Of a stretch of DNA of 20,897 nt, positions 7,923 through 18,975 are shown piece after piece. Under the pieces are notes generated by a model. The model ran no database searches. It was not told the origin of the DNA and saw only the letters and a list, made by a program, of their open reading frames with translations. Location: the IMG/VR virus record IMGVR_UViG_3300032271_002180. The stretch is one strand, 5' to 3'. This stretch comes from a virus. The first letter of the stretch is position 1. Every line of letters starts with the position of its first letter. Made by a program: the position numbers and the translations under genes.

Positions 7923-8657
7923 TTACAAATCCGGTGCATCGCTTGCAATGCTTTGGGAGCTATTTCGTCTCTTTCTTACGTATATATTTCTATTTTTAAG
8001 AATGCTAGAAAAATATTTATTCCCAGCACGGCTGCCTGCAATCCCAAAATGTTTTAGAGTTTTGTCAATTGACCACACCGTTTGATAATATTCGATCATT
8101 TTCTCTAGATTCTGATCTATGATTCGGTTTGACTCAGCCCGATCATGTTTTTTGCAGGTTTCTGAACAGTATATTTCTAGATTTAACCTTTTAAATTGAG
8201 AGTTGCATACCTTGCATGCATGGAAAATAAGATCGAAGTTCATCCTCCGTCCTTCTGTCCATCCAACTGGCAAGAGATCGGACTTCTTTATCTTCCTGTT
8301 TTGTTGTAACTCCGTGTTGCATATCCATCTGGTACCATATTGGTTATTTCCGTATCCAGCTTGGCGTTTGCTCTGTGTTTCAGAGAAACGTCTCCTTAGC
8401 CAGCCGTATAATTTGTTGTTAGGCCTGCCGGATACCATCATCACGGCAGCATTGATCAGCGGACTGTTGTTTGGATATATTTTGACAAGAAGCTGATGTG
8501 CCACGTAGTGTTCTTCCGGAGTTAACCTAACAAGGTTGTCCTTGTTATCAGTGCCTCCTATGCATTTGGGTATAACATGATGATTTTCAGTGTATCCTTG
8601 GACGATCCTAGATTTTGCGCGTTCTATCAATACGTCATAATGTTTCTTGTAATCCAT
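7923..8657 (-). CDS. HNH homing endonuclease with a C-terminal Cys-rich zinc ribbon
   Basis: N-terminal HNH motif ENHHVIPKCIGGTDNKDNLVRLTPEEHYVAHQ. C-terminal CKVCNSQF ... YCSETCKKH ribbon. AT-rich. Lies between tRNA genes. Confidence 0.78.
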   Translation of the reverse strand: MDYKKHYDVLIERAKSRIVQGYTENHHVIPKCIGGTDNKDNLVRLTPEEHYVAHQLLVKIYPNNSPLINAAVMMVSGRPNNKLYGWLRRRFSETQSKRQAGYGNNQYGTRWICNTELQQNRKIKKSDLLPVGWTEGRRMNFDLIFHACKVCNSQFKRLNLEIYCSETCKKHDRAESNRIIDQNLEKMIEYYQTVWSIDKTLKHFGIAGSRAGNKYFSSILKNRNIYVRKRRNSSQSIASDAPDL

Positions 8658-8770
8658 GATGCATTATTTATTTGTAAAAATAAAATACCGGTTGATGTTA
8701 CCTTACAAAATCTTATCATTGTCCGGGTTACAAAGCCGGTCCCTCGCCATCTAGGGGTTGGGAGCAGGTA

Positions 8771-8844
8771 GTCTATTTAATGGTGGACCTCCGGGAGTCG
8801 AACCCCGAACTTCGCCGTGCAAAGGCGACGTGTTCCCGCTAGCA
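8771..8844 (-). tRNA. tRNA-Ala (UGC), CCA encoded
   Basis: Acceptor GGGCTTC / GAGGTCC, 7 bp with two G-U pairs. Anticodon stem TCGCC / GGCGA with loop TTTGCAC. T-loop TTCGACT. Discriminator A and CCA. Confidence 0.65.
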
Positions 8845-8854
8845 CCAGAAGCCC

Positions 8855-8883
8855 ATCTACTCTGTATATAGCTTTGAATTTTA
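8855..8883 (-). promoter_or_regulatory. sigma70-like promoter (TTGTGA, 17 nt, TATATA) upstream of tRNA-Ala
   Basis: Read from the minus strand. The -10 lies about 10 nt before the tRNA 5' end. Confidence 0.35.
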
Positions 8884-9008
8884 GAAATCACAAGATGTTT
8901 ATATCGACTGTGTACATATTGATGATGTGTTGGAATATTTATTAATTGCATTGCATCTGCAAGCAGCTTATTTTCCACGATCATTTGTGCGATTGTCAAT
9001 GAACAAAA

Positions 9009-9097
9009 TGGCGGAGTCCCCGGGGGTCGAACCCGGTCTACCCATAACAGGTAGTACAGATTAGCAATCTGCTGCATTACCGTCCTGCCCGGACTCC
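9009..9097 (-). tRNA. tRNA-Ser (GCU), class II, CCA encoded
   Basis: Acceptor GGAGTCC / GGACTCC. Anticodon stem GCAGA / TCTGT with loop TTGCTAA. Long variable hairpin CTACC ... GGTAG. T-arm CCGGG-TTCGACC-CCCGG. The 5' 37 nt overlap the 3' end of CDS 9061..9789. Confidence 0.7.
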
Positions 9098-16345: not shown

Positions 16346-16690
16346 GCCAAATACGTTTCCTGATTCAATTGTCAAACAACAAACAAACTTCAAACCATTA
16401 AAAAACCCCGGTAAGCTAGCTGCTCCCGGGGTCCTTATCGCATGTGTGATTGTTAAATCACCCTAGGCGATGGACCCCCACGTAGGCTCATTGCTGGCCC
16501 AACGGCTAAACTGCTTGACGAGATGATAAATGGTATCCATTTGTGAAAGCTCTATATCCTTTGTGTGTGCTAGTTATTGCACAGTTTATTTAGCATGTCA
16601 ACCTCATCCACCGCGTTTTCTTTGGAAAAATCCTTAAAAATGCAATGGACGCTGTTGATGTTCGTGTTATACGTGCTTTTTATCGCCGCG

Positions 16691-17380
16691 TCAACCTGGC
16701 TTTCGCACGCTTGCGATGAAATATCCATTGTGCCAGTCACTGTTTTGATGTGCATTCGGTGGGTGGCTGCCGTCTAGGGTGGTGAATATCTCGATGGAGT
16801 CCACGATCAATCCAAGATCCTGGATGGCCCTCTGGGTTCCTGATTGCACGTCAAAGCTATTGTAATCGTCAACTATCAGCACAAACTCGTCATCAAGGGC
16901 CGGCATGGCTATCACGATGCCATCATACTGATCCTGCTCGGAATGCGGACCATCAAACATGTATGCGTTGAATCGTCCGATGCCGGAGAAATCCACCTTA
17001 CTAAAATCCTCTTGCAGGAACGTCACCGGATTGCGACCATTCTGGGCTCGCTGGATGTTTGCATGCAGCGTGTCTATGCTGCCAGGAAACACTCCCCACA
17101 TGTCAATGGCGGTGGCTGATACCGTGTTGCCCGATATGGCCGAACACAGGGTTGAGCCCAACCATGTGCCAACCTCGAGATAGCGTGCATCCGGCAGTGT
17201 TGAGATGATCAAGTTGATCATCTGTCGGTATCTCTTGCCACTCATTCCTTGCATCTCAAGAACCCACGGCTCAATGGTCAATGGTCCATCGAGAGCAAGA
17301 TCAAAGCATGATGTTATCAATGGCGTGTAGCGTAGATCCATCGATGAATCGATGGATCGGGTGATCCCGGCGTATGTCAT
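16691..17380 (-). CDS. Class I SAM-dependent methyltransferase (TylF/Methyltransf_24-like)
   Basis: YLEVGTWLGSTL is a motif I-like G-rich loop. AIDMW and FDGPH ... LDDEFVLIVDDYN follow. Start sits 3 nt after the lipoprotein stop. Confidence 0.55.
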   Translation of the reverse strand: MTYAGITRSIDSSMDLRYTPLITSCFDLALDGPLTIEPWVLEMQGMSGKRYRQMINLIISTLPDARYLEVGTWLGSTLCSAISGNTVSATAIDMWGVFPGSIDTLHANIQRAQNGRNPVTFLQEDFSKVDFSGIGRFNAYMFDGPHSEQDQYDGIVIAMPALDDEFVLIVDDYNSFDVQSGTQRAIQDLGLIVDSIEIFTTLDGSHPPNAHQNSDWHNGYFIASVRKPG

Positions 17381-17383
17381 TTG

Positions 17384-17584
17384 TCAATGGCATCTTTCAA
17401 TGCGTATGTAGCGTCCCGTCCTATGATCCCATGTGTTCTCAACATGGCAAATCGGGCGATGGGGCGGTATCACGTAAACCGGCGCAGGTCGATAGATCGG
17501 GCGGTGATGGTGTTCCTCGACATAGGCCGGCTGTGTGCATGCCACCAGTGCTAGCAATAACGGAAGGATGTAAAGATGTTTCAT
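17384..17584 (-). CDS. Small lipoprotein (66 aa) with a type II signal peptide (lipobox LVAC). Pro-rich mature region with two C-terminal Cys.
   Basis: MKHLYILPLLLALVAC: a positive n-region, a hydrophobic core and the lipobox L-V-A-C. Mature part contains RPIYRPAPVYVIPPHRP. Its start overlaps the upstream gene's stop (ATGA). Confidence 0.5.
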   Translation of the reverse strand: MKHLYILPLLLALVACTQPAYVEEHHHRPIYRPAPVYVIPPHRPICHVENTWDHRTGRYIRIERCH

Positions 17585-18132
17585 TTGATGCCTTGTTGTT
17601 CTTGTTGGATGTTGGACATGACCACCTTTTGCATGATGGCGTCGACGGCCATCTCCCCACTGGGTATGGTGTCAAATTTCACACCAAAGGTGTCGATCAG
17701 CAGCTCGACCCTGCGATCAAATTCCTTGGCCTCTTCCTCGTCCTTTTGATTCCGCCCGATCGGGTTGTAGTTGAAATTGCGGCGGAGAAGGAAGTTGTGG
17801 TTGGTGTATTGATCAAATACCTCCATCACTAGACGATTGAAATTTTCGCTCAAAACGTTCGGCCGAAGGTACACCAGTCCGAGTGGTATCGGGCTGTCGG
17901 TTATCACCCACTCTATGCCTGAATCCTTCAGCCTGCTGATCCTGCGATGTTGCTTGGCGAAGATGTAGATCTGGTCATCGAGTATGTTATATCTTTTTTC
18001 CCAGACCGCATCCTTGGCATATTCCATCGCTATCTCAACGTTTAGTCCTTTTTTCTTCATCTCATATAGCAATCCGGCTGCGGCTGTAGATTTTCCCACT
18101 CCGGGGCCTCCCCAAATATTCACCACCTTCAA
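17581..18132 (-). CDS. P-loop NTPase / nucleotide or polynucleotide kinase-like protein
   Basis: Walker A MKVVNIWGGPGVGKSTAAAGL, compared with T4 Pnk GCPGSGKST. 183 aa. TTG start with an AGGAG RBS 9 nt upstream. Confidence 0.65.
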   Translation of the reverse strand: MKVVNIWGGPGVGKSTAAAGLLYEMKKKGLNVEIAMEYAKDAVWEKRYNILDDQIYIFAKQHRRISRLKDSGIEWVITDSPIPLGLVYLRPNVLSENFNRLVMEVFDQYTNHNFLLRRNFNYNPIGRNQKDEEEAKEFDRRVELLIDTFGVKFDTIPSGEMAVDAIMQKVVMSNIQQEQQGIK

Positions 18133-18228
18133 TTTCAGTTACTCCTACATTATTGTAATAAATTCAAGTGTAGGTCACGATACTACTAATATCTACCTAC
18201 TCTAAACGCTTTTGGGAGCATTCAGCAT

Positions 18229-18975
18229 ATGTATATATACTGCACAACTACTAACTACCGCAAGATCTATAAAAACCATCACGGAACCATACCAGTTGAT
18301 GAGCTGGGTCGGTCATATCACATTCATCATATTGATGGTAACCATTCAAATAATTCACCAGAAAATTTGCGCGCGGTGTCGCCACAGGAACATTATGAAA
18401 TCCACTTGGAACAAGGGGACTGGAGTGCAGCCCTTTACTTGGGTTCCAATTTAGAGTTATCAGCTTTAGAAATATCAGAGCTATCCAGAAAAAATGCCCT
18501 AAAGAGGGTACAGGATGGTACTCATAATCTACTTGGCGATCATAACCCTAGCCGGAGATTAGCCAAAGAAGGTAAACATCGTTGTCAAGGAGGCAAAGAA
18601 AACAAACGCCGACTCGAAAAAGGCATTCATAACTTCAATTCAGAATTTGCCAAAAAAGTGCAACGGGAACGAGTTGCCAACGGTACACACAACTTACTCG
18701 GAGGAGAAACAGCAAGGGCATTGTTTAACAAGCGCATGCTCGAGGGCACCCATCAGAATCTACAAGTTCACACATGCCCACATTGCGGCAAAGTCGGTAA
18801 AGGACCATCTATGAAAGTATGGCACCTTGATAATTGCAGATATAATCCAATATTTTTGGATTCAACCCCTCCAAACCGTATTCCAGTCAAATGTCCTCAT
18901 TGCGATGTTATCGGAGGACCAAGAGTTATGAAGGCAAAGCATTTTGATAGATGTAAGCATTGCCCCAAAGATTGA
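18229..18975 (+). CDS. HNH homing endonuclease with two C-terminal CPHC ... H ... C zinc-finger repeats
   Basis: SYHIHHIDGNHSNNSPENLRAVSPQEHYEIH is the HNH motif. Repeats CPHCGKVGKGPSMKVWHLDNCRYN and CPHCDVIGGPRVMKAKHFDRCKHC. GGGAG RBS. Confidence 0.78.
   Translation: MYIYCTTTNYRKIYKNHHGTIPVDELGRSYHIHHIDGNHSNNSPENLRAVSPQEHYEIHLEQGDWSAALYLGSNLELSALEISELSRKNALKRVQDGTHNLLGDHNPSRRLAKEGKHRCQGGKENKRRLEKGIHNFNSEFAKKVQRERVANGTHNLLGGETARALFNKRMLEGTHQNLQVHTCPHCGKVGKGPSMKVWHLDNCRYNPIFLDSTPPNRIPVKCPHCDVIGGPRVMKAKHFDRCKHCPKD

Follow-up and report, generated by a model that had tools for sequence, protein, structure and literature searches.

The window analysed here, a 20,897-nt stretch of viral DNA taken at its full length (IMG/VR record IMGVR_UViG_3300032271_002180), contains five putative homing endonuclease genes (HEGs), designated E1 to E5, which lie between positions 7,923 and 18,975. 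Sixteen tRNA genes were identified in the window by ARAGORN, every one of them on the minus strand, and four further tRNAs were recovered with Rfam (3746-3902, 7889-7960, 14723-14794 and 15308-15380). An initial annotation had described the five nuclease genes as interleaved with this array. All five open reading frames (ORFs) exist, but the end of E3 had been misplaced (12125, not 11960), and the position between tRNA genes applies to E1 to E4 only, since E5 lies outside the array and is separated from the nearest tRNA end by 2016 nt. The AT-richness reported for the genes was confirmed. With GC contents of 0.40 (E1), 0.416 (E2), 0.371 (E3), 0.433 (E4) and 0.424 (E5), each of them is below every other long ORF (0.446-0.632) and below the window as a whole (0.507). 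The GC contents at third codon positions (0.342-0.416) revealed the same pattern, except for orf229 (0.413) and, less closely, orf198 (0.452). The base composition of the five genes is foreign.

The strongest feature of these genes, which the initial annotation had missed and which is the main new result, is their systematic abutment on tRNA genes. E1 (7923-8657, minus strand, 244 amino acids) runs with its final 38 nt into tRNA-Thr(UGU) (7889-7960, minus strand), a gene with an atypical T-loop that was missed by ARAGORN and detected by the Rfam tRNA model at 32.7 bits (gathering score 29, E-value 1.6e-4). The C-terminus of E1 (...SQSIASDAPDL*) is encoded by tRNA positions 1-38, and the stop codon is supplied by the anticodon loop (TTG TAA). 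Likewise, the final 37 nt of E2 (9061-9789, minus strand, 242 amino acids) overlap the 5′ end of tRNA-Ser(GCU) (9009-9097, minus strand), which was called by ARAGORN and scored 43.9 bits with Rfam. E3 (11406-12125, plus strand, 239 codons) and E4 (15424-16104, plus strand, 226 amino acids) converge on the ARAGORN-called genes for tRNA-Gly(UCC) (12140-12214, minus strand) and tRNA-Tyr(GUA) (16128-16212, minus strand), at distances of 14 and 23 nt from their stop codons, respectively.

The relatives of these genes revealed the same preference. For the family formed by E2 and E4, 79 IMG/VR loci were kept and grouped into 54 clusters at 70% identity. A gene was counted as abutting if its stop codon was located between -50 and +25 nt from a tRNA gene, and random positions in the same tRNA-rich loci served as null. 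By this measure, 34 of the 54 clusters (63%) abut a tRNA gene, compared to 8.3% under the null (binomial P ~1e-23); 26 of the 34 read into the 5′ end of a tRNA on the same strand while eight converge on a 3′ end. The abutted tRNAs belong to 14 types by anticodon, with tRNA-Ile(GAU) being the commonest. An IMG/VR scan for the E3 family recovered 212 relatives in 52 clusters, 25 of which (48%) abut a tRNA gene where about 8% are expected (P ~5e-14). A tRNA-Ala(UGC) lies 40-85 nt upstream of the gene in about 20 cases, and four of the five clusters closest to E3 converge on tRNA-Gly(UCC), like E3 itself. Between about one quarter and 40% of the abutting members are encoded on the strand opposite to the tRNA. 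The same arrangement was found in cultured jumbo phages and in T4-like phages. Several arrays carrying PD-(D/E)XK genes (L034, L037, L052, L058-L060 and L067) also encode a transfer-messenger RNA close to the abutted tRNA-Gly(GCC).

E2 and E4 possess a C-terminal PD-(D/E)XK nuclease domain, preceded by an N-terminal cluster of four cysteines in E2 and by two zinc ribbons of the FCS type in E4. As previously noted, the two domains are homologous (33% identity over 66 amino acids) and share the motif GK.R.Y.PDF followed by (D/E)xK. In E2 the catalytic signature reads E...PDF...EVK (...TPDF...IEVK), in E4 it comprises E137, D172 and D183-P-K185. Nine residues (W151, R153, Y169, P171, D172, F173, Y181, K185 and K196) do not vary among 47 aligned family sequences, and E137 and D183 are near-invariant (at least 90%). 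E2 also matches PHROG 15137 'endonuclease' at 2.9e-10. At E-values of 0.025-0.08, the family profile aligned with T7 endonuclease I chains, and the catalytic E, D and ExK were in register. The AlphaFold model, with a mean predicted local distance difference test score of 85.6 and values above 94 across the nuclease domain, retrieved same-fold nucleases as top Foldseek matches, with weak E-values. The domain has an alpha-beta-beta-beta-alpha-beta core and the catalytic set E...(P)D...(D/E)xK, and the motifs thus map to a restriction-endonuclease fold. No Pfam or NCBIfam model reached its threshold on E2, E4 and their relatives; the nearest were DUF7487, Phage_endo_I and TnsA-like_N (4.6e-4 for E2), all under the cut-off, and NCBIfam gave nothing meaningful for the nucleases of the window. 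Phage_endo_I (gathering score 29.1 bits) did not match E2 or E4, its best score among the relatives was 21.8 bits (coliphage vB_Eco_F25), and E-values below 0.01 were obtained for two of the 47 sequences. Relatives of E2 are present in 43 phage records, a protein collection yielded 197 mostly unannotated homologs of E4 (E ≤1e-3), and a scan of IMG/VR with the family alignment retrieved at least 346 relatives.

Together with the other three genes, four nuclease lineages are represented in the window: Mob-like HNH (E1), HNH_3 (E5), HNH-like (E3) and T7-endonuclease-I/TnsA-like PD-(D/E)XK (E2, E4). The initial annotation had assigned HNH or PD-(D/E)XK modules to the whole set, which holds for the HNH signatures of E1 and E5 and the PD-(D/E)XK domains of E2 and E4, while E3 has only a divergent HNH-like motif. 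The N-terminus of E1 matches PHROG 655 'homing endonuclease' at 4e-50 and contains the HH...N...H motif; the Pfam HNH model (PF01844) gave 15.9 bits (E 0.014), under the cut-off of 21.4. By tblastn, relatives of E1 were detected in 1085 phage records, mostly T4-like, where they are annotated as mobile or homing endonucleases. E5 (18229-18975, plus strand, opposite to its neighbours, 248 amino acids) scored 42.7 bits with Pfam HNH_3 (PF13392; cut-off 24.8, E-value 4.2e-11), matched PHROG 12324 'intron-like DNA endonuclease' at 1.1e-31 and carries two C-terminal CxxC-x13-H-x3-C fingers. In E3, two zinc ribbons are accompanied by the nuclease motif 'SRDH...HPxNC', which suggests a divergent HNH-like domain; no Pfam model reached its threshold for the E3 family.

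The [FY]CS zinc ribbon, thought to recur throughout the set, is confined to E1 (one C-terminal copy, CKVC...YCSETC), E3 (two copies) and E4 (two copies), in which it follows the signature C-x2-C-x9-12-[FY]CSxxC. E2, with cysteines arranged differently (C-x3-C ... CC-x6-C), and E5 have none. The ribbon is paired with four nuclease domains, namely Mob-like HNH in E1, HNH-like in E3, PD-(D/E)XK in E4 and a DUF559/Vsr-like domain (26.9 bits, Pfam cut-off 20.6) in a fusion encoded by contig L011. This contig, the nearest one by its ADP-ribosylglycohydrolase, harbors four such endonuclease genes (529-1128, 2963-3751, 9122-9805 and 13050-13877), at positions other than those in the window. The endonuclease gene set turns over fast among related phages. 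In relatives, the ribbons are followed by NUMOD3-like segments, NUMOD3 was detected in four of the 47 aligned members of the E2/E4 family, and in a few homologs of E4 helix-turn-helix (HTH) or NUMOD3 modules replace the ribbons or lie next to them. Such swapping is typical of the DNA-binding modules of homing endonucleases such as I-TevI. The family profile matched the chain of the I-TevI DNA-binding domain at an E-value of 0.21, and by analogy with the I-TevI zinc finger and the NUMOD modules, the ribbons may be modular DNA-binding units. The combination of zinc ribbon and PD-(D/E)XK domain is plausibly an undescribed architecture; literature searches, which were not exhaustive in coverage, found no description of it.

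The genes are not fixed among relatives. A 29-nt exact match to the 5′ end of tRNA-Gly(GCC) retrieved 61 IMG/VR contigs, 31 of which extended far enough upstream. In ten of the 31, a gene of the E2/E4 family is located between tRNA-Ala(UGC) and tRNA-Gly(GCC), which are spaced by 865-878 nt, while in 15 the two tRNAs are only 8-54 nt apart with no gene in between. Occupied and empty junctions share their sequence again from approximately 25 nt before tRNA-Gly onwards and differ in the allele of the upstream tRNA-Ala, a pattern that co-conversion would produce. Coliphage vB_Eco_F25 has a family member between tRNA-Met(CAU) and tRNA-Arg(UCU), with an overlap of 38 nt with tRNA-Arg. The corresponding slot of Salmonella phage SG1 is occupied by a gene annotated as 'homing endonuclease', which has the size and position of T4 SegB and is presumably SegB-like, and that of RB6 by tRNA-Tyr and tRNA-Asn; the homology between F25 and RB6 breaks within the flanking tRNAs. 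Among 789 flank-matching records, the gene was covered in F25 alone. An empty site was also found for E5. This gene and its upstream region form an 849-bp segment (18133-18981) between the genes for an RNase T-like and an AAA_28 protein, which is missing from the relative L002 (65-67% protein identity). There, the RNase T homolog (2225-3070) abuts the AAA_28 homolog (3071-3616, 67% identical), demonstrating the sporadic presence of E5 at a shared junction.

E3 provides a case of decay. The gene had already been recognized as a pseudogene, and this status stood, whereas its true extent includes the conserved nuclease motif downstream of 11960. It is interrupted by three nonsense codons, TAG at 11544-11546, TAA at 11958-11960 and TAG at 12006-12008, within a single frame from 11406 to 12125. 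An intact allele from a sister sample (P0121, 239 amino acids) is 97% identical to E3 and contains Gln, Tyr and Gln at these positions, and sense residues are also present in the intact homologs of the jumbo phages GAP32, Vibrio 2.275.O and Erwinia pEa_SNUABM_44. Because all these alleles have sense residues and the window contains no suppressor tRNA, E3 is regarded as a recently inactivated copy.

The flanks of E1 point to the way in which such a gene may be accommodated by its target. At 8719-8765 (minus strand), 61 nt upstream of the E1 start, lies an orphan 5′ half of a tRNA-Thr gene comprising the acceptor strand, the D arm and the anticodon arm. It forms a direct repeat with the 5′ half of the intact tRNA-Thr (77% identity over 47 nt; local alignment score 25, z 15.5 versus shuffled sequences), and the similarity stops just past the anticodon arm. 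The simplest reading of this one locus is that E1 entered a resident tRNA-Thr gene at its variable loop, as part of a cassette that brought along a new 5′ half for the tRNA. The tRNA-Thr would thereby have stayed intact, and its old 5′ half would have been orphaned upstream.

The window forms part of KRAE22-1 scaffold_512, a metagenome scaffold of 28.6 kb in ENA. A megablast search of the whole window against 50,697 phage records gave no nucleotide-level match. IMG/VR scans with orf231 and the methyltransferase did not recover syntenic relatives, and scans of IMG/VR and metagenomes with the ADP-ribosylglycohydrolase yielded relatives with 33-77% identity in which the gene order is not conserved. 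The ORF at 946-3450 (minus strand) encodes 834 amino acids with an N-terminal repeat region resembling the major vault protein, in a segment with a GC content of 63%. Its matches in the phage database are restricted to 735-kb and 462-kb genomes of 'uncultured phages' (38-39% identity). Since the vault-like ORF matches only these phages and both of the closest relatives obtained are viral contigs from IMG/VR, the window was treated as a huge-phage contig. The ORF at 20411-20839 (minus strand), rich in Pro, Gly and Val and containing PVGPV repeats, is probably a collagen-like repeat gene and is kept in L002 (54-491).

Some of the tRNAs themselves are unusual. The one at 3746-3902 (minus strand), not called by ARAGORN, gave a full-length model match of 52.6 bits, and its anticodon loop is interrupted after CUUUGG by an 85-nt insertion. 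This gene probably represents a tRNA-Pro(UGG) that harbors a short intron or another inserted element, below the typical size of a group I intron. The tRNA at 15225-15298 (minus strand, 58.6 bits) has a six-base anticodon loop (UAUCAA), to which ARAGORN assigned a two-base anticodon. In the pair at 14639-14715 and 13736-13812 (minus strand), a tRNA called Leu(GAG) lacks the long variable arm and shares 87% identity with the tRNA-Pro(CGG) next to it; it looks like a Pro-type body with an altered anticodon. The tRNAs at 7889-7960 and 15308-15380 (minus strand) have T-loops reading GGCGGUA and AGCGUUA instead of UUCGAAU. It is a matter of speculation, given the T-psi-C recognition by SegB, that such loops might influence endonuclease targeting. 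Suppressor-type tRNAs (CUA/UUA) are frequent in the arrays of carriers (L002 5404-5480, L007 2773-2847, L031 4088-4163, L034 6966-7041).

With a probability of roughly 80%, E1 to E5 are free-standing HEGs that colonized a huge-phage genome. A homing role had been proposed by the initial annotation and is upheld by HNH_3 in E5, PHROG 655 in E1 and the variable occupancy of the sites, which extends from the empty E5 site of L002 and the decay of E3 relative to intact P0121 to the empty and occupied sites of the E2/E4 family. Three of the families are, in our judgement, specialized on tRNA genes. By analogy with T4 SegB, the enzyme would cut an HEG-less phage genome during co-infection in or beside a conserved tRNA gene, and recombinational repair from the HEG-carrying genome would copy the HEG together with flanking tRNA alleles into the break. 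On this reading, insertion takes place preferentially at a tRNA gene boundary, with the ORF ending at or inside the tRNA. Nuclease folds and motifs, foreign base composition, variable presence, pseudogenization and tRNA abutment were observed directly, and from these we infer cleavage specificity for tRNA genes, DNA binding by the ribbons and gene conversion. More tentatively, and with somewhat less than even odds, the ribbon-sharing, as yet unnamed PD-(D/E)XK and HNH-like families may be homing elements of large phages that are dedicated to tRNA genes as targets. They would insert at the edge of or inside a tRNA gene and, at least in some cases such as E1, carry a replacement tRNA piece by which the target remains functional. 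Several points weigh against these interpretations. No close relative of this genome was recovered in which the sites of E1 to E4 lack the HEG. The half-tRNA remnant was seen for E1 only; none was detected upstream of E2, E3 and E4, and a survey across the family loci gave only four weak candidates, most signals being other full tRNAs. Cleavage and homing by the E2/E4 and E3 families are putative, and their target sites are deduced from position only. The FCS/TRASH classification of the zinc ribbons is based on sub-threshold matches (PHC1 FCS finger, E 0.09-0.22; DUF2116, 24.4 versus 26.8 bits). Moreover, tRNA arrays are variable, and part of the abutment could have arisen without targeting, if insertions survive preferentially in intergenic spacers that tolerate them.

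It is conceivable that E2 and E4 are not mobile at all but housekeeping recombination enzymes, such as a Holliday-junction resolvase or a debranching nuclease similar to T7 endonuclease I. T7 endonuclease I chains are indeed their nearest relatives with known structures (E 0.025-0.08), PHROG 9019 'Holliday junction resolvase' was matched at 4.5e-8 and 5.3e-6, and 'endodeoxyribonuclease I' is the annotation given to homologs from phages of Acinetobacter and Escherichia. However, a core resolvase is expected to be single-copy and syntenic, whereas E2 and E4 are two divergent paralogs within 7 kb and huge-phage genomes harbor several copies. The scores under the Phage_endo_I cut-off, the low GC content, the variable N-terminal DNA-binding modules (zinc ribbons, NUMOD3, HTH), and the empty and occupied sites between the same tRNA pair, together with a T-even slot that in other phages contains a 'homing endonuclease' or only tRNAs, make such a role quite improbable. 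Slightly less remote, albeit still unlikely, is the assumption that the nucleases are not purely selfish but serve the tRNA array as domesticated helpers, whose breaks drive duplication, shuffling or amplification of tRNA genes against tRNA-targeting defences of the host, as has been reported for SegB, or which, in a variant, act on tRNA precursor RNA. The window does contain paralogous tRNAs, the 87% identical Pro(CGG)/'Leu(GAG)' pair and two Arg tRNAs, an ORF on the same strand probably shares a transcript with the tRNA that it overlaps, and FCS fingers as well as some PD-(D/E)XK proteins can bind or cut RNA. On the other hand, the catalytic set E/D/(D/E)xK characterizes metal-dependent DNases, the window revealed no amplification junctions, and a substantial fraction of the abutting members is oriented opposite to the tRNA. 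That one of the five copies is a pseudogene and that many relatives are devoid of the genes argues against an essential role.

For E3 alone, a further explanation was considered and rejected. As in some huge phages, the gene might be expressed through stop-codon suppression or recoding and not be a pseudogene. All interruptions are in-frame stops without a frameshift, two of them are TAG codons at Gln positions of the intact allele, and suppressor tRNAs with a CUA anticodon were found in relatives, in L002 and several family loci. Yet the stops are a mixture of TAG and TAA replacing Gln and Tyr, which does not fit any single reassignment, and neither ARAGORN nor Rfam revealed a tRNA with a CUA or UUA anticodon in the window. 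The remaining long ORFs of the window are uninterrupted under the standard code, and the changes from CAG to TAG and from TAY to TAA each require one base. Recoding of E3 is therefore highly improbable.

If the PD-(D/E)XK and HNH-like families are indeed homing elements directed at tRNA genes, they would be major drivers of tRNA gene gain, exchange and reshuffling in the arrays of huge phages, which would help to explain the high variability of the tRNA arrays of large phages. Phage tRNA arrays are now regarded as counter-defence cargo, and the SegB paradigm, its anti-defence role included, would be extended to new enzyme folds. Naturally occurring enzymes that recognize long sites in conserved tRNA sequence would become available, as would a reusable DNA-binding module, the zinc ribbon, for nuclease engineering. 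In addition, hundreds of genes designated 'hypothetical' or 'endonuclease I / Holliday junction resolvase' could be better annotated.

Homing endonucleases in the tRNA regions of phages are well established. Three features set the present case apart, none of which was found described in the non-exhaustive literature searches: a T7-endonuclease-I/TnsA-like enzyme that is free-standing and ribbon-bearing, another family with an HNH-like domain, and an abutment on tRNA genes that is tight and specific to lineages. The closest parallel is T4 SegB, whose 27-bp recognition site includes the T-psi-C motif. This enzyme cuts many tRNA genes, and it homes into the tRNA region of T2L with an inheritance of about 100%, carrying neighbouring tRNA alleles along (PMC2330249). 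SegB homologs are enriched within 1 kb of tRNAs, and SegB can amplify tRNA genes, by which the phage escapes the Septu defence (PMC13096335). Like the genes described here, segB is free-standing, lies between two tRNA genes, ends a few nucleotides before the next tRNA (3 nt in SG1) and is missing from close relatives, and in F25 a member of the E2/E4 family is located in the very same slot. In contrast, SegB is a GIY-YIG enzyme, while PD-(D/E)XK or HNH domains and ribbon modules of the FCS type were found here, and no GIY-YIG model was among the Pfam, PHROG and NCBIfam matches of the five proteins. The resemblance is thus one of position and presumed mode of action only.

PD-(D/E)XK homing endonucleases are known as well. 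I-Ssp6803I, located in the intron of a tRNA-fMet gene, and the Vsr-like I-Bth0305I are both intron-encoded and use a restriction-endonuclease fold for homing, as E2 and E4 would do. E2 and E4 differ from them in being free-standing and, by sequence, nearer to T7 endonuclease I, TnsA and DUF7487, and E4 in having N-terminal ribbons. By sequence profile and fold, T7 endonuclease I and the N-terminal domain of TnsA are closest to E2 and E4, with aligned E/D/(E/D)xK residues. These enzymes are, however, set apart from E2 and E4, which are multi-copy, sporadic and tRNA-abutting, have extra DNA-binding modules and score under the Pfam thresholds. With I-TevI and the NUMOD proteins, the genes share four-cysteine modules that precede short basic segments and are located on the N- or C-terminal side of a separable nuclease domain, but the ribbons, for which DNA binding is presumed, have the FCS/TRASH signature [FY]CSxxC and not the sequence of the I-TevI finger. 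E1 is Mob-like in its N-terminus and departs from T4 MobA-E by an additional FCS-type ribbon and by reading into a tRNA gene. E5, finally, resembles the HNH enzymes of the I-HmuI type through HNH_3 and PHROG 12324, to which it adds two CCHC fingers.

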